From: a virus
Lineage: Duplodnaviria; Heunggongvirae; Uroviricota; Caudoviricetes
Strand: one strand, 5' to 3'
Virus record (IMG/VR): IMGVR_UViG_2663763286_000025
Span: 1-4,179 of that record
DNA length: 4,179 bases
Shown here: one piece after another, positions 1 to 4,179 of the stretch
Position numbering within the stretch: the stretch's first letter is position 1
How the letters are laid out: each line of letters begins with the position of its first letter
Notes under the pieces: model-generated
Database searches by the model: none
Told to the model about the DNA's origin: nothing
Seen by the model: the letters and a program-made list of their open reading frames with translations, nothing else
Translations under genes and position numbers: made by a program

Positions 1-117
1 ACGTGGGTGGACTGGTATAACAATCGACGATTGCTGGAAAGGCTGGGCCATATTCCTCCGGCAGAAGCAGAAAAAGCTTATTATGCTTCCATCGGAAATA
101 ATGATCTGGCAGCCTGA
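1..117 (+). mobile_element. 3' end of a DDE transposase gene (integrase-core C-terminal tail, IS3-family-like); 5' part lies outside the window
   Basis: Frame 1 is open from base 1 and translates to TWVDWYNNRRLLERLGHIPPAEAEKAYYASIGNNDLAA, stop TGA at 115-117. The W-x-x-W-Y-N-x-R-R...L-G...P-x-E pattern is the typical C-terminal tail of DDE (retroviral-integrase-like) IS transposases. The exact IS and its terminal inverted repeat cannot be determined from the window. Confidence 0.55.
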
Positions 118-421
118 GTTCACAGATAAAATACTCTCCAGGAAACCCGGGGCGGTTCATACTGCTGTCTGCCCAAATTGCTCTCATGAAGAACCCAGTG
201 AAACAGACGACATTGTTTGGTCTTACCGTTCACGGGAAACGCCAGCCACCGACGCTTTCCTGGCTGAAGTGCGGGCGCAGGCGTTTAATGACCTTTGCTC
301 GGTGTTCGTTAAGGACGCGACGGTTGTCGGGCTGGACGATGGCGACATCGTTACGGTGAAAGAAGCGACGGACGCCCTGCTGCATTGTGCGGAACAGCTT
401 CGCAAAGGAGGCAACCAGTGA
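118..421 (+). pseudogene. Possible 3' remnant of a prophage gene whose 5' part was displaced by the IS; boundaries uncertain
   Basis: The track ORF 83..421 begins inside the transposase tail, so its N-terminus is a chimera. Its distal part stays open and ends with TGA 419-421, overlapping the GTG start (418-420) of the next gene in a GTGA arrangement typical of coupled phage genes. No credible start codon with an RBS lies downstream of the transposase stop in this frame. Confidence 0.3.
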
Positions 422-1179
422 GCAAGATTGACTTTCAGGCACTGCGTGAAAAGGCAGAGAAAGCAACTAAAGGAAGCTACATCGTAGGGCATACATCTGT
501 TAACCAGCACGGCAATTTAACAGGAGTTTTTGTTTGTCAAAAATGGAAAGGAGAGCCAGGTGGCGTGATTGCAGAATGTCACGTTAACTGTCTGGTTGAA
601 ACAGATGCTCAGGCTTATGCAAACGCAGAATTCATAGCAGAGGCTAACCCAGCTACCGTACTGGCACTGCTGGATGAACGGGAAAGAAACCAGCAATACA
701 TCAAACGCCGTGACCAGGAGAACGAGGAGATTGCGCTAACGGTAGGGAAGCTGCGTGTTGAGCTTGAGGAGACAAAATCAAAACTCAACGAGCAGCGCGA
801 GTATTACGAAGGTGTTATCTCGGATGGAAGTAAGCGTATTGCTGAACTGGAGAAAAGCGAAGAGCAACTCATCAACGAGCGTGACCATGCTGAGTCTGCT
901 TTAGCTGATATGTATTTTGCAGCAACCGGGGATAGGCCTGAGTGGAGTAACTGGTTCGGTTTTTCAGATGCTGTCAATGCCGTGGTTGACAGAATTGCTG
1001 ATTTAGAAGCTAAACAGCCATCGCCAGTAGTACCGGAAGGATTGATTAAAGCAGTGCGCTTCTATGAACAGGTTAAGCGTGAAAATCCGCCAGTCGAAAC
1101 CGGAGCATGGAAAGACGCTGTTGACTGGGTGCTCAAAGAGGCTTGTCAGGCTGTAAACATTCGCATCAAAGGAGAGTGA
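418..1179 (+). CDS. Ead/Ea22-like prophage protein (253 aa) with a central coiled-coil segment
   Basis: GTG at 418 sits 6 nt after a strong Shine-Dalgarno AAAGGAGG (404-411). The N-terminus SKIDFQALREKAEKATKG and the motif AEFIAEANPATVLALLDERE are recognisable Ea22-like signatures. The central region (ERNQQYIKRRDQENEEIALTVGKLRVELEETKSKLNEQREYY...) is heptad-like and charged. The track start at 385 is TTG without an RBS and is probably an artefact. Stop TGA 1177-1179. Confidence 0.75.
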   Translation: MSKIDFQALREKAEKATKGSYIVGHTSVNQHGNLTGVFVCQKWKGEPGGVIAECHVNCLVETDAQAYANAEFIAEANPATVLALLDERERNQQYIKRRDQENEEIALTVGKLRVELEETKSKLNEQREYYEGVISDGSKRIAELEKSEEQLINERDHAESALADMYFAATGDRPEWSNWFGFSDAVNAVVDRIADLEAKQPSPVVPEGLIKAVRFYEQVKRENPPVETGAWKDAVDWVLKEACQAVNIRIKGE

Positions 1180-1371: not shown

Positions 1372-2040
1372 ATGACCACTATTACCAAAGAATGGCTACA
1401 GAAAACGATTACCAGCATTGAGTCAGCACGGGATGAAATACCGTTCGGACTCGATGAAGATCAAAGCAACATGCTTACCGCATTTAAAATTGCACTGGCA
1501 TCACTGGAACGCGAACAGATTCGCCACGAGCATGCCAAATGGTCTGACTCCACATTTGGCTGCGTTGGCCCCATTGGTCCACTGAAACACCTATCAAAAG
1601 AGGCTCTGGAAGCCGCAGCCGAACCTGACGATCTCAGCGAGTGGGCTGATATGCAGTTCCTGTTGTGGGATGCACAGCGCCGTGCTGGTATCAGTGATGC
1701 TGAAATTACCGCTGCTATGGAAAATAAATTGAAGATCAACATGGAACGCCAGTGGCCTGAACCAAAAGATGGTGAGCCTCGCTTGCACATTAAAGAACCC
1801 GACAACTCTCCGGGAACTCCGGATAGTTGGATAAGCTGTAGTGATCGAATGCCTGAAAAGGGCCAGAACGTGCTTATTTCGGTGAATTTCGATAGCTCTC
1901 TGGTTGAACCGCTAATATGCTCCGCACGCTATACCGGAAGCACCTTTCGGCGCGGAGATGCAACGATTAAGCCGGGTAATGGTATTGAGCAAGCAACTCA
2001 CTGGATGCCGCTACCGGAACCGCCGCAGGAGGTGAAGTGA
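1372..2040 (+). CDS. DUF550 (dATP/dGTP pyrophosphohydrolase-like, MazG-type) N-terminal domain fused to a DUF551 C-terminal domain (222 aa)
   Basis: ATG at 1372 lies 2 nt after the upstream stop. The N-terminal half (HAKWSDSTFGCVGPIGPLKHLSKEALEAAAEPDDLSEWADMQFLLWDAQRRAGISDAEI) matches the phage DUF550 pyrophosphohydrolase-like domain as I recall it. The C-terminal half (WISCSDRMPEKGQNVLISVNF...ATHWMPLPEPP) matches DUF551. Stop TGA 2038-2040. Confidence 0.7.
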   Translation: MTTITKEWLQKTITSIESARDEIPFGLDEDQSNMLTAFKIALASLEREQIRHEHAKWSDSTFGCVGPIGPLKHLSKEALEAAAEPDDLSEWADMQFLLWDAQRRAGISDAEITAAMENKLKINMERQWPEPKDGEPRLHIKEPDNSPGTPDSWISCSDRMPEKGQNVLISVNFDSSLVEPLICSARYTGSTFRRGDATIKPGNGIEQATHWMPLPEPPQEVK

Positions 2041-2612
2041 TGAACAACTTAATGATCGACCTTGAGACGATGGGGAAAAATAAGGATGCACCGATCGTTT
2101 CCATTGGCGCGGTGTTCTTCACTCCAGAAACCGGAGACATCGGACAAGAATTCTATACGGTTGTTAGCCTGGAAAGTGCTATGGGGCAAGGAGCTACACC
2201 TGACGGCGATACCATCCTGTGGTGGTTGAAACAAAGCCCTGAAGCACGAGCTGCAATCTGTATTGATGATACTTTGTCGATCAGCGATGCTCTCTCAGAA
2301 CTAAATCATTTCATTAACCGGCACGCAGACAATACGAAATATTTAAAAGTCTGGGGTAACGGAGCCACCTTCGACAACGTAATTTTACGTGGAGCTTATG
2401 AGCGAGCAGGACAAATCTGCCCGTGGGCATACTGGAATGACCACGATGTACGCACGATCGTTACGCTTGGGCGTTCCATCGGATTCGACCCCAAAATGGA
2501 CATGCCTTTCGATGGCGAACGGCACAACGCCCTGGCTGATGCCCGTCATCAGGCAAAATATGTTTCCGCTATCTGGCAGAAATTAATTCCTGCCACCAGC
2601 ACAGAATTATGA
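2040..2612 (+). CDS. DnaQ-like DEDDh 3'-5' exonuclease, phage type (190 aa)
   Basis: ATG 2040-2042 overlaps the upstream TGA by one base, with AGGAGGTG at 2027-2034. The three Exo motifs are visible: MIDLET (Exo I, D and E), GNGATFDN (Exo II, D) and ERHNALADARH (Exo III, H-x4-D). The track start at GTG 2037 is an in-frame alternative. Confidence 0.75.
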   Translation: MNNLMIDLETMGKNKDAPIVSIGAVFFTPETGDIGQEFYTVVSLESAMGQGATPDGDTILWWLKQSPEARAAICIDDTLSISDALSELNHFINRHADNTKYLKVWGNGATFDNVILRGAYERAGQICPWAYWNDHDVRTIVTLGRSIGFDPKMDMPFDGERHNALADARHQAKYVSAIWQKLIPATSTEL

Positions 2613-2648: not shown

Positions 2649-2930
2649 ATGAACACCTTGTTTTTACTGATGGCTGAATTCAATACCTCAAACATTGAAC
2701 TCTCAGCAGTTAGCCAAAAGTACTTTGGTATGAGTCCAGCCACAGCAGAAGCAAAAGCAAACGCTTGTAAGTTGCCCGTTCCAACATATCGCATCGGCAC
2801 ATCACAAAAAGCAAAACGTTGCATCAATATTCAGGATCTTGCGGAATACATAGACAAAAGACGAGAAGAAGGACGTATCGAGTGGGAACAGGTCAGAACA
2901 GGCAAACAGAAGGGCAAAGAACATCACTAA
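2649..2930 (+). CDS. PrtN-family / excisionase-like small DNA-binding protein (93 aa)
   Basis: The N-terminus MNTLFLLMAEF and the C-terminal DLAEYIDKRREEGR resemble the pyocin-activator PrtN family found as Xis-like proteins next to prophage integrases. ATG 2649 lies 6 nt after GGAG (2639-2642). In-frame alternatives at GTG 2622 and ATG 2637 lack an RBS. Stop TAA 2928-2930. Confidence 0.65.
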   Translation: MNTLFLLMAEFNTSNIELSAVSQKYFGMSPATAEAKANACKLPVPTYRIGTSQKAKRCINIQDLAEYIDKRREEGRIEWEQVRTGKQKGKEHH

Positions 2931-2932
2931 AG

Positions 2933-2958
2933 AAAAAACCCGCCTAAAGGCGGGTTTT
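2933..2958. terminator. Rho-independent hairpin terminator, bidirectional but stronger for the minus-strand transcript
   Basis: Perfect 6-bp GC-rich stem CCCGCC (2939-2944) and GGCGGG (2949-2954) with loop TAAA. It is flanked by an A6 tract (2933-2938) and a T4 tract (2955-2958), so the minus-strand RNA ends in six U and the plus-strand RNA in four U. It lies 2 nt after the PrtN-like stop and 19 nt after the stop of the minus-strand small ORF. Confidence 0.7.
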
Positions 2959-2977
2959 CAAAAAGCACCAGCTATGA

Positions 2978-3151
2978 TCATGCTGCTTTGCGACGACGAA
3001 GCTTACCCTGCTGCTCTTTACCAGAGACAGTAGCGTGAGTGAACGCATTAGGAGCAGCCTTCATCAGAACTTCAACAGCAGCCCCCATACCTGCGAATGC
3101 TTTCATTGTGTCGAACTTAAGCTGTGGCTTAGTTGCTTTTTGATCTTCCAT
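2978..3151 (-). CDS. Small hypothetical protein (57 aa), last gene of the minus-strand cassette; not in the supplied ORF track
   Basis: Manual translation of the reverse strand gives MEDQKATKPQLKFDTMKAFAGMGAAVEVLMKAAPNAFTHATVSGKEQQGKLRRRKAA. ATG is at 3151-3149 with GGAG 6 nt upstream on the minus strand, and TGA at 2980-2978. It sits 39 nt downstream of the 139-aa gene and just upstream of the terminator. No family recognised; the C-terminus is basic. Confidence 0.4.
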   Translation of the reverse strand: MEDQKATKPQLKFDTMKAFAGMGAAVEVLMKAAPNAFTHATVSGKEQQGKLRRRKAA

Positions 3152-3190
3152 AGAAAACTCCAGAAGCTATACCGAAACAATTCCTGTTGT

Positions 3191-3610
3191 TTACTCATCA
3201 TCAATAGATGATACGCAATATTTATTTTTAAATTTAAGGTTCTTTGGCGTAACTTCATCAGATATATCAAAACCGTCCAGAATTCTATTGAATGTAGCTT
3301 CTGGCATATCATCATGAACAGAAATCTCACCCGATCGCTGCTTTCTAACCATGTTATCCACTCGCCAAATTATAGCTTCAGCGTAAACAACATAACTTGG
3401 ATGCTTGATAAAGCGATGATCACCGGAATTCAAGACGCAAGACGGATCGTGGGGGACCCCATCCTTGATACTAGAAATATTAACAACTAAAACACAATAA
3501 CAATCGTTAACGGGGTAATAAACAGGATCATTACAAATCACATGAAGATGATTGCATGGCCCAGTTGGGGCAAGCACAGTTCCTTTCCTGTATGGCTGAT
3601 AATCCGTCAT
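3191..3610 (-). CDS. Hypothetical 139-aa Cys/His-rich protein, translationally coupled to the Panacea-domain gene; candidate toxin/effector
   Basis: Its start ATG (3610-3608) overlaps the upstream stop TGA (3609-3607) in an ATGA arrangement and has no independent Shine-Dalgarno. The protein has Cys at 19, 26, 37, 39, 58 and 132 and His at 21, 23, 54, 65, 70 and 99 (for example GPCNHLHVICNDP and NDCYCV). No hydrophobic transmembrane stretch and no family I can name. Confidence 0.6.
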   Translation of the reverse strand: MTDYQPYRKGTVLAPTGPCNHLHVICNDPVYYPVNDCYCVLVVNISSIKDGVPHDPSCVLNSGDHRFIKHPSYVVYAEAIIWRVDNMVRKQRSGEISVHDDMPEATFNRILDGFDISDEVTPKNLKFKNKYCVSSIDDE

Positions 3611-4179
3611 GATAATTGCAAAGAAAATTCCTTAAGTTTCTGAGATTCTTCCATTTTGCCAATTATGCGATTAGCCTCATCCTCGCTTTTACCCTCACTG
3701 ATCAGCATTTCTTTCAGGTCTATAGGCTTACGAGAATTGCCAGGATTGTGCCACTCTGGACAAACGCTTTCTAAATGCGTCATGTTTGCGAGATCAAATC
3801 GGTTCATATGCCCATACAGAGAATAGATTTCATCTAAAATCCGGATATCTGCACGGCTCAACTCATCAAAGACCTCGTCTGCATCCATTTCCCTCGGATC
3901 TGAACGCAACAACACATCATGCCCGTTCGTCTCTATCAAGTTGTACCAGTAGTCACCAATGCCTTCAGCCTTACCACGAATCAAGTTCAGCGTATTCGAC
4001 ATGACTGGACCAAATTTCATAGAGTAAAGGCTATCTTCGCCGATCATCCTGCCATGCTTCAAAATCGACTTGCGGTTAGACAGATAGAGCAGCTTCATCA
4101 ATTTCAGATATGCCATGCGCCCACCTCGCTTAAGAAGTAGGTATGCAGCCATTTGAGCTACTTTTTCTTCGCAAAACAT
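3607..4179 (-). CDS. Panacea-domain (DUF4065, SocA/PanA-like) protein, putative antitoxin (190 aa); start codon at the window edge
   Basis: The N-terminal region AAYLLLKRGG...YLKLMKLLYLSNRKS...MKFGPVMSNTLNLIRG matches the Panacea pattern (A-x-Y-f-l ... KLxKLLY ... GPV). The ATG is the last three bases of the window (4179-4177), so the promoter, and any 5' extension, cannot be seen. Stop TGA 3609-3607. Confidence 0.7.
   Translation of the reverse strand: MFCEEKVAQMAAYLLLKRGGRMAYLKLMKLLYLSNRKSILKHGRMIGEDSLYSMKFGPVMSNTLNLIRGKAEGIGDYWYNLIETNGHDVLLRSDPREMDADEVFDELSRADIRILDEIYSLYGHMNRFDLANMTHLESVCPEWHNPGNSRKPIDLKEMLISEGKSEDEANRIIGKMEESQKLKEFSLQLS

Follow-up and report, generated by a model that had tools for sequence, protein, structure and literature searches.

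A probable RdfN-type excisionase gene and an exchangeable, putative toxin–antitoxin cassette at the attachment-site end of a dusA-type lambdoid prophage

The window, that is, the whole stretch of 4,179 nt that was analysed, carries a plus-strand run of early-left lambdoid genes upstream of a convergent block of three minus-strand ORFs occupying 2978-4179. The features located in it are as follows.

1..159, plus strand: 3' end of an IS3-family (IS600-like) element, annotated as IS3-like/IS600 transposase in matching genomes
7-117, plus strand: C-terminus of the IS transposase, part of the IS600-like 3' end
418-1179, plus strand: Ead/Ea22
between Ead/Ea22 and the following gene, plus strand: 62-aa ORF
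1372-2040, plus strand: dATP/dGTP pyrophosphohydrolase-DUF551 protein
2040..2612, plus strand: Rv2179c-like 3'-5' exonuclease (Pfam PF16473, E 4e-75), penultimate gene of the early-left operon
2649..2930, plus strand: PrtN-family gene, probably an rdfN-type excisionase, 93 aa (PF11112), last gene of the early-left operon
2900..2930, plus strand: variable 3' tail of rdfN (codons 85-93), left edge of the variable region against three of the four other cassette types
2935..2958, either strand: intrinsic terminator hairpin between the convergent units, stronger on the minus strand
2978..3151, minus strand: 57-aa ORF (PHROG 2741) with a GGAG ribosome-binding site
3191..3610, minus strand: putative PanT-like toxin, 139 aa, with a predicted, distantly MazF/Kid/CcdB-like fold and no Pfam family
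3607..4179, minus strand: predicted PanA antitoxin (Panacea/SocA domain), 190 aa (PF13274)

The original prediction had described a xis-like gene ending at 2930, a terminator after it and a foreign-looking convergent block of 1.2 kb, and this layout is borne out. The G+C content is 37-45% over 3000-4050, as compared to ~44-55% (mostly 46-52%) upstream, and the start codon of the 190-aa gene forms the last three bases of the window. Neither an integrase gene nor a tRNA was found within the 4,179 nt, and an Rfam search of the window returned no match. At the opposite edge, homology to uninterrupted prophages begins at ~160 in the megablast comparison with E. coli genomes; the IS600-like element interrupts the early region and marks the window's prophage as degraded. 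Among the related phages and prophages inspected, most keep the exonuclease gene upstream of that for PrtN, the exceptions being N2250, where it is absent, and EC4115, where it is truncated.

The hairpin at 2935-2958 has a folding energy of −16.2 kcal/mol (z = −5.0), and none of 200 shuffled sequences folds as well. A scan for the terminator consensus calls it on the minus strand only, with 11 pairs followed by TTTTTTCTTT, while just four U follow the stem on the plus strand. This suggests that the hairpin terminates transcription of the convergent genes more effectively than that of the PrtN gene.

The 93-aa PrtN protein matches PF11112 (PyocinActivator/PrtN) with an E value of 9.7e-23 over profile positions 1-73 of 74, and PHROG 1300, annotated as 'excisionase', with an E value of 3.6e-39. 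Its length lies within the ~76-100 aa of the small PF11112 proteins of the RdfN type. It is 61% identical to a V. cholerae PrtN protein across all 76 aa of the latter, which is taken here as a protein of an SGI1-like dusA element and is not equated with the assayed RdfN of IMEVchUSA3. The V. cholerae element also has PcrA/YbjD-like genes and an MpsA-like Integrase_1 gene, a content that fits the description of some Vibrio elements by Durand 2021. RdfN is the PrtN-domain protein of dusA-specific integrative elements; its deletion abolishes excision, and RdfN together with Int is sufficient to excise a mini-element (Durand 2021, PMC8409611). In relatives 98-100% identical to the window, the insertion site is the dusA 5' end, and a tyrosine integrase gene adjoins the restored dusA. 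The early-left region of the window and those of the annotated relatives inspected displayed no second Xis-like gene. The gene product is thus most likely an excisionase of the RdfN type, as judged from its family matches and its context, in agreement with the role first proposed for it.

The DNA past position 4179 was read in relatives (the cassette up to 100% and most of the window 99.8% identical) and not in the window's own genome. When the window was compared by megablast with 5426 complete E. coli genomes, the region matched in many strains, the closest relative, 2013C-3492, being 99.8% identical over the 77% of the window covered. Three unrelated genomes (2013C-3492, O157:H7 NE1092-2 and 2024CK-00474) were inspected, and in all three the Panacea gene is followed by ~250 bp, a 105-bp 5' fragment of dusA, and then host yjbM and zur. 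The arrangement of PrtN gene, cassette and junction is present in 205 complete E. coli genomes, with the orphan dusA 5' fragment and host DNA ~250 bp past the cassette. At the opposite end of the 45-kb prophage of 2024CK-00474 lie a full dusA, a gene for a 365-aa tyrosine integrase (PF00589) transcribed away from dusA, dinI and tail fibre genes, and 2013C-3492 has an intact dusA-int-dinI junction 36 kb from the cassette. The integrase gene of both relatives checked is thus found at a distance of 36-45 kb, where it adjoins the restored dusA of the other junction. This dusA-int-dinI junction occurs in 729 of the 5426 genomes and an rdfN-type PrtN gene besides dusA in ~750 of them, so that the prophage family is found in ~13% of complete E. 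coli genomes.

When attB (the empty site of BL21) is aligned with the two junctions and with the dusA 5' end carried by the phage, a common core emerges, TCGAGCAT, at which host identity switches and which corresponds to the dusA codons Met-Leu-Asp; the phage provides a diverged replacement 5' end. The position of this switch in the relatives places the prophage edge ~253 bp past the window end. The pattern agrees with that of dusA-associated integrases, whose element brings a new dusA 5' end and leaves the original one as its outer boundary (Farrugia 2015, PMC4482086). A tRNA scan of the junction region of the closest relative found none, which, along with the lack of an Rfam match in the window, argues against a tRNA-type att site. 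The order expected past 4179 is CAGGTTCCCAATAGGCTCCCAC, ~50 bp, TCGAGCAT, dusA codons 35 to 1 on the minus strand, and yjbM. The DNA beyond the cassette had been suggested as the place to look for an integrase, an attachment site or a tRNA; in the prophage it would hold the attachment junction, with the orphan dusA 5' fragment followed by host yjbM/zur, in place of an integrase or tRNA gene.

The maps of two free phages, mEp460 (NC_019716) and Lys8385Vzw (MT225100), run from the exonuclease through the PrtN protein, the convergent cassette, attP and the integrase to dinI. The Lys8385Vzw record is circular and carries the same cassette as the window, and the PrtN protein is labelled 'excisionase' in the mEp460 annotation. 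The attP region spans 340-455 bp in these phages and contains repeats of the motif AGGTTCCC(A): on the side facing rdfN there are two direct copies of AGGTTCCC separated by 11 bp, the first of which begins at a distance of 64 bp from the core, and the int side has two direct copies and one inverted copy. These repeats are putative arm-type integrase sites.

These maps also settle where the cassette lies relative to the integrase gene. The original prediction started from the rule that a PrtN/Xis-like gene normally sits beside int and offered two explanations for the window, insertion of the cassette between xis and int or loss of int. The rule fails for the dusA-specific integrative elements studied, which have no xis downstream of int and a separately placed PrtN-domain RDF (PMC8409611). 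Insertion between xis and int holds on the circular map of Lys8385Vzw and mEp460 and breaks down in the prophage, where attP splits the two genes to opposite ends. Loss of int finds no support in the 99.8% identical relative, in which an intact int adjoins the restored dusA at a distance of 36 kb.

For the interval between rdfN and attP, E. coli genomes were searched with the segment spanning rdfN through the dusA remnant, and representatives were inspected. The same flanks enclose at least five alternative gene sets, all convergent with rdfN: (i) the window type, with 205 genomes; (ii) the EC4115/mEp460 type, a 177-aa uncharacterised protein and the same 57-aa ORF; (iii) the UTAK-1 type, a different Panacea antitoxin and a 153-aa protein; (iv) the N2250 type, the Panacea antitoxin WP_000287252.1 and WP_000019186.1; and (v) the R11 type, a 179-aa protein and a YafO toxin. 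In Kurata 2022 (PMC8832971), WP_000287252.1 is the antitoxin of the E. coli STEC O31 PanAT pair, which is experimentally validated and membrane-targeting, and the pair carries the label 'NotPhage' in the dataset. The accession of the N2250 toxin, WP_000019186.1, is one number apart from that of the validated STEC O31 toxin, WP_000019185.1.

On the left, the slot begins within rdfN: UTAK-1, N2250 and R11 share DNA homology with the window as far as 2899/2900, and EC4115 (type ii) through 3164; the PrtN proteins of the different cassette types are conserved up to T84, being invariant at all but eight positions, and their tails diverge thereafter. On the right, the slot of four types reaches up to the first AGGTTCCC repeat (L001 16207, window-equivalent ~4370), and that of the fifth, the UTAK-1 type, ends ~40 bp earlier (L001 16165). 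A synthetic query joining rdfN to the att arm found rdfN within ~720 bp of the arm in none of the 5426 E. coli genomes, so that an empty slot does not occur in this species. The cassette alone was found in 206 E. coli genomes as compared to 205 with the full context, never on plasmids, and is confined in E. coli to the slot between rdfN and attP.

Relatives in other genera were sought with a scan based on a PrtN alignment, taking one genome per species, which yielded 80 loci. The opposite strand downstream of PrtN was then searched for the DusA motif [RKH][FLYW][SCTA][VILT]APM, which ends at the crossover and has, by our own estimate, a chance expectation of ~6e-4 per locus. At 11 loci the motif lies 75-144 bp past the PrtN stop codon and there is no cassette; they belong to Mixta, Xenorhabdus (two loci), Gilliamella, Klebsiella, Serratia, Rosenbergiella, Pluralibacter, Morganella, Colwellia and Pseudorhodoplanes. 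Pseudorhodoplanes is an alphaproteobacterium, so that the cassette-less loci extend over Gamma- and Alphaproteobacteria. Most of them display the PrtN stop codon, a pair of direct repeats whose sequence varies by genus, an AT-rich spacer of ~45-50 bp and the core.

Six further loci have 1.1-2.9 kb of cargo between the PrtN gene and the dusA motif. The cargo is the window's PanA-toxin pair in Kosakonia and Pluralibacter (83-87% identity), the YafO type in Phytobacter, the 177-aa type in Escherichia sp., an HTH protein with an IrrE/M78 peptidase-like protein in a Gilliamella element, and an HTH-M78 fusion protein with further ORFs in a Paraferrimonas element. Comparison of the cassette-less with the cargo-bearing loci defines the cassette as an insertion between rdfN and the attP arm, which answers the earlier call for such relatives. 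In some dusA elements of other genera (L031, L070, L071 and L084), int directly follows rdfN in convergent orientation and is followed by a full dusA, e.g. Pectobacterium L031, so that members of the family differ in where rdfN lies with respect to attP. As judged from these comparisons, the convergent block is exchangeable cargo in an att/int-proximal hotspot and not backbone. The hotspot surmised in the original prediction is thereby supported, and a cassette universal at this position, named there as a finding that would overturn it, is not what the five E. coli types and the cassette-less relatives elsewhere display.

The 190-aa protein matches PF13274 (Panacea/SocA) with an E value of 1.8e-18 over residues 27-137, i.e. 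it has the domain found in the antitoxins of PanAT systems, and 4 nt (ATGA) are shared between the end of its gene and the start of the toxin gene. The two-gene arrangement is kept across unrelated contexts in Shewanella, Kosakonia, Pluralibacter and Burkholderia. A yicC-integrated island of Shewanella japonica has a toxin homologue (53% identical) immediately behind a Panacea gene, the two overlapping by 4 nt, and the same overlap is found in the Kosakonia and Pluralibacter prophages. Occurrence of the pair in the unrelated Shewanella island indicates that the antitoxin and toxin genes travel as a module. The 57-aa ORF belongs to PHROG 2741, a family of unknown function, and is found among phage records (tblastn) only in the rdfN-attP slot, in five records; being common to the window and EC4115/mEp460 types, it is not specific to the PanAT module.

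The 62 homologues of the 139-aa toxin, from Enterobacterales, Vibrio and Shewanella, have no Pfam domain. Their N-terminus, MTxYxPYRKGTVLAP, is conserved and favours the ATG at 3610 over the shorter RefSeq call of 128 aa. The family alignment reveals H21, H23, C26, D55, C58 and H65 as invariant; the His/Cys cluster among them (H21, H23, C26, C58 and H65) is not known as a feature of MazF or CcdB. The AlphaFold2 model built from this alignment (pLDDT 90.7, pTM 0.84) has an SH3-like barrel of the MazF/CcdB type, and the top fifty Foldseek hits are all MazF-family endoribonucleases, with modest scores (best E 4.7e-3, TM 0.44-0.61). At the sequence level, the toxin gave no match to Pfam or NCBIfam models, MazF/PemK/Kid included, and profiles of PDB sequences gave the family nothing below E 0.35; hhalign found no relationship to E. 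coli MazF (probability 0.3%) or to CcdB. Since these tests are negative, the link to MazF is one of fold, and assignment of the protein to the MazF family was rejected.

The structural model gives the 139-aa protein a MazF/CcdB-type fold, and its mode of action is probably that of a toxin of this type. Pairing of a Panacea protein with a MazF-like fold has a precedent in two validated PanT toxins, predicted to be PemK/MazF-like, which inhibit translation (Kurata 2022, PMC8832971). PADLOC matched none of the four proteins and has no model for the pair, and NCBIfam gave nothing near its cut-offs for the window proteins. Neither the PanA nor the toxin accession of the window occurs in the portion of Dataset S1 of Kurata 2022 that was covered (PMC8832971). 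Promoter scans found nothing above chance; the sole candidate for the cassette (L001 16170-16142, TTGACC-17-TAAACT) is a 9-of-12 consensus match of chance frequency.

Taken together, the window most plausibly represents, with a probability of roughly 85%, the ordinary end of a dusA prophage, in which an RdfN-type excisionase gene is followed by swappable toxin–antitoxin cargo and the attachment site, the integrase gene being at the far end. What is read directly from the sequence and its comparison with relatives is the geometry of the junctions, the place of int, how the slot varies and where its boundaries lie, and the domain content. As the last gene of the early-left operon, rdfN would be made only after induction. 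The tyrosine integrase gene, lying on the other side of attP, would come to stand at the opposite prophage end next to dusA with its phage-restored 5' end; its transcription would lead away from the junction and presumably start at a promoter of its own within the att region. Expression of Int and of the RDF would then be uncoupled, by analogy with KplE1 and HK620. Between rdfN and the two arm-type-like attP repeats, the slot would hold the terminator, the 57-aa ORF and a type II toxin–antitoxin operon, PanA first and then the toxin. The hairpin would end both convergent transcripts. Transcription of the operon would start close to the att arm, probably at a promoter of its own, and run from the prophage edge towards the interior; as in a moron, the cassette could then be expressed during lysogeny whatever the state of the lytic programme. 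Direct binding by PanA is the most likely way in which the toxin is neutralised, as established for the PanAT family (PMC8832971), and defence against phages and/or stabilisation of the prophage is the most likely function of the pair.

A different history, in which an integrase gene once followed the xis-like gene, was deleted and had its place taken by the cassette, would suit a degraded prophage with an IS600-like element in its early region, and int does directly follow the PrtN gene in the four elements of other genera mentioned above. However, the att junction follows the slot in the E. coli relatives inspected and int is intact at the other junction, the 99.8% identical relative included; attP lies between cassette and int in the free-phage genomes, and the genome counts for the int junction and rdfN (729 and ~750) agree, which renders such a deletion highly improbable. 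It is just as hard to credit that the convergent genes are conserved phage backbone, for instance lysogeny or recombination accessory genes. A slot never empty among 5426 E. coli genomes and a 57-aa ORF common to two cassette types are what one would expect of backbone, but five unrelated gene sets share this slot between identical flanks, cassette-less relatives exist in other genera, the G+C content of the cassette is below that of the backbone, and the same PanA-toxin pair occurs in the unrelated yicC island of Shewanella.

As for the PrtN-like protein, the founding Pseudomonas PrtN is a transcription activator of pyocin genes, after which the Pfam family is named, and RDFs often act as regulators too; the window's protein could then be an activator, with the true RDF encoded elsewhere. 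This is unlikely in view of the 61% identity to the 76-aa PrtN protein of V. cholerae, from an element class with RdfN as its sole RDF (PMC8409611), of PrtN genes 75-144 bp from the att junction beside arm-type-like repeats in Gamma- and Alphaproteobacteria, and of the early-left regions of the window and the annotated relatives inspected, where no other Xis-like gene is seen. Somewhat less improbable, yet still doubtful, is a PanA-toxin pair that does not arrest growth, being inert or, e.g., a regulator with a nucleic-acid enzyme devoid of toxicity. The toxin has no sequence-level match to any known toxin, its invariant His/Cys cluster is not a known feature of MazF/CcdB, and PADLOC and NCBIfam are negative; against this stand the Panacea-domain partner and the 4-nt gene overlap, conservation of the pair across genera and contexts, a fold search that yields almost exclusively toxins of toxin–antitoxin systems, and the validated PanAT antitoxin in the same slot of sister prophages.

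The preferred reading, an ordinary dusA-prophage end, closely resembles the dusA elements with RdfN (PMC4482086, PMC8409611). Both integrate at the 5' end of dusA, leave an orphan 5' fragment outside and supply a new 5' end; both have the integrase beside the restored dusA, no xis beside int, and a PrtN-domain protein near the other junction. They differ in that the window belongs to a lambdoid tailed prophage and not to an SGI1-like mobilisable island, that its rdfN ends the early-left operon whereas an AcaCD-responsive promoter is used in SGI1-like islands, and that a cargo cassette lies between rdfN and the junction in the window's prophage type. With mEp460 and Lys8385Vzw the prophage shares a 98% identical backbone and the order exonuclease, PrtN, cargo slot, attP, int, dinI; in mEp460 a 177-aa protein replaces PanA and the toxin, and the 57-aa ORF is kept.

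In the KplE1/HK620/Sf6 module, too, integrase and RDF are transcriptionally uncoupled (PMC2951348), although the proteins (IntS/TorI), the target (the argW tRNA) and the RDF family are unrelated to those considered here. In KplE1/HK620 the integrase promoter and the att region overlap, and it is on RDF expression that the switch to excision depends (Panis 2010, PMC2951348). Lambda likewise combines a tyrosine integrase with a small DNA-bending RDF encoded distally in the early-left operon. In lambda, however, xis and int are adjacent, co-transcribed from pL and on the same side of attP, whereas in the window type a terminator follows the RDF gene, and attP and the cargo cassette separate it from int; the window accordingly does not display the lambda arrangement. 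Like PanAT systems (Kurata 2022, PMC8832971), the cassette has a Panacea antitoxin gene upstream of an unrelated small toxin gene, and the validated STEC O31 antitoxin WP_000287252.1 occupies the rdfN-attP slot in N2250. The window's toxin belongs to another family, without a Pfam model and with an invariant His/Cys cluster, known here from its sequence and model.

The architecture is already described for dusA elements and PanAT systems, and none of these findings overturns current understanding. What is new is modest: the boundaries, precise to within a few bases, of a toxin–antitoxin cargo slot in a prophage family of ~13% of complete E. coli genomes, and an uncharacterised, putative toxin family with a predicted MazF-like fold paired with PanA. 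One may speculate further, at rather long odds, that the rdfN-attP slot is a dedicated exchange site for toxin–antitoxin and defence cassettes, that a promoter near the repeats couples toxin activation to excision, and that the toxin represents a new metal-dependent activity on a MazF fold. Its invariant H21, H23, C26, C58 and H65 could confer such metal dependence. With cassette promoters a few tens of bases from the AGGTTCCC repeats, assembly of the Int/RdfN intasome or loss of the prophage could shut off antitoxin synthesis; if this is true, an excision-coupled toxin would act in post-segregational killing of cured cells or as a checkpoint on induction.

For annotation, the locus is a trap, as a 'missing' integrase gene next to a PrtN-type excisionase gene is normal in dusA prophages, the edge of which lies just past the cassette. 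The antitoxin of a validated PanAT pair is now placed in a prophage cargo slot. A family with several cassettes of toxin–antitoxin or unknown genes at one spot would further offer a compact natural system in which to study how cargo benefits its prophage.

In the dusA prophage of E. coli N2250, the cargo slot between rdfN and the attP arm (L007 1804-2848) is occupied by a gene for WP_000287252.1, the antitoxin of the validated STEC O31 PanAT pair; the STEC O31 PanAT row of Kurata Dataset S1 closes with 'NotPhage' (PMC8832971). Other proteins encoded in the slot are as follows.

L005 2200-2733 (EC4115): alternative cargo, a single 177-aa protein
L010 5809-6342 (mEp460): alternative cargo, 177-aa protein
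Window 2978-3151, minus strand: 57-aa ORF (PHROG 2741), preceded by a good ribosome-binding site

The 177-aa protein appears to be the commonest alternative cargo of the slot in E. coli, turning up in about 5 of the 60 rows sampled at even intervals from a search made with the stretch from rdfN to the dusA remnant (the orphan 5' fragment of dusA at the prophage edge), and the protein of EC4115 and mEp460 has no match in Pfam. The 57-aa ORF is common to two cassette types and, in phage records, is found in the rdfN-att slot only.

The putative toxin of the window's cassette (3191-3610, minus strand) is annotated in RefSeq as WP_014640052.1, with a length of 128 aa. The toxin N-terminus is conserved across 40 homologues, which favours an ATG further upstream, at 3610, as the predicted start and gives 139 aa rather than the RefSeq call; with this ATG, the toxin ORF and the PanA stop codon share 4 nt. 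Homologues of both PanA and the toxin were located at two Burkholderia loci of the one-genome-per-species PrtN scan.

L085 5026-5840, strand opposite to the PrtN gene: PanA and toxin homologues
L088 5033-5847, strand opposite to the PrtN gene: PanA and toxin homologues

The Burkholderia toxin homologue displays 51% identity to the window toxin over 67 aa, and the pair sits immediately upstream of the PrtN gene; the module and the kind of neighbour are the same and the side is reversed.

The early region of the window's prophage is interrupted by an insertion element, inside which the window begins.

Window 1-159: IS600-like element of the IS3 family, 3' end

Since the closest relatives of the window carry IS600 at another point and are devoid of the Ea22 gene, IS activity is eroding this prophage lineage. 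Separately, a dATP/dGTP pyrophosphohydrolase domain (PF04447) and DUF551 are fused in one ORF at 1372-2040; in relatives this gene is split in some and truncated in others.

At two further scan loci (L047 6312-6948 and L049 6386-7006), a partial or fragmented integrase gene directly follows the dusA remnant that trails the PrtN gene, which suggests a tandem second dusA element, now decayed. A Pseudorhodoplanes MAG (L089 651-6360) contains an entire dusA element that spans just about 4.7 kb, in the order dusA, divergent int, other genes (∼3 kb) and PrtN gene, with the dusA remnant 92 bp after the latter; this element is a natural minimal form of the dusA-element layout.

The crossover core TCGAGCAT occurs in two tandem copies in the Lys8385Vzw record (L011 6395-6410), which could be a real duplication or an artefact of assembly or circularisation. 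Direct repeats also occur in pairs, separated from the core by roughly 45-50 bp.

L001 16207-16229 (E. coli relative): paired direct repeats CAGGTTCCCAATAGGCTCCCAC
L011 6331-6352 and 6539-6574 (Lys8385Vzw): the same E. coli repeats
L019, L040, L047, L053, L076 (other genera), 3' of the PrtN stop: paired direct repeats

The repeat sequence varies by genus while the spacing is preserved, the pattern to be expected if the repeats are arm-type integrase sites co-evolving with the integrase.
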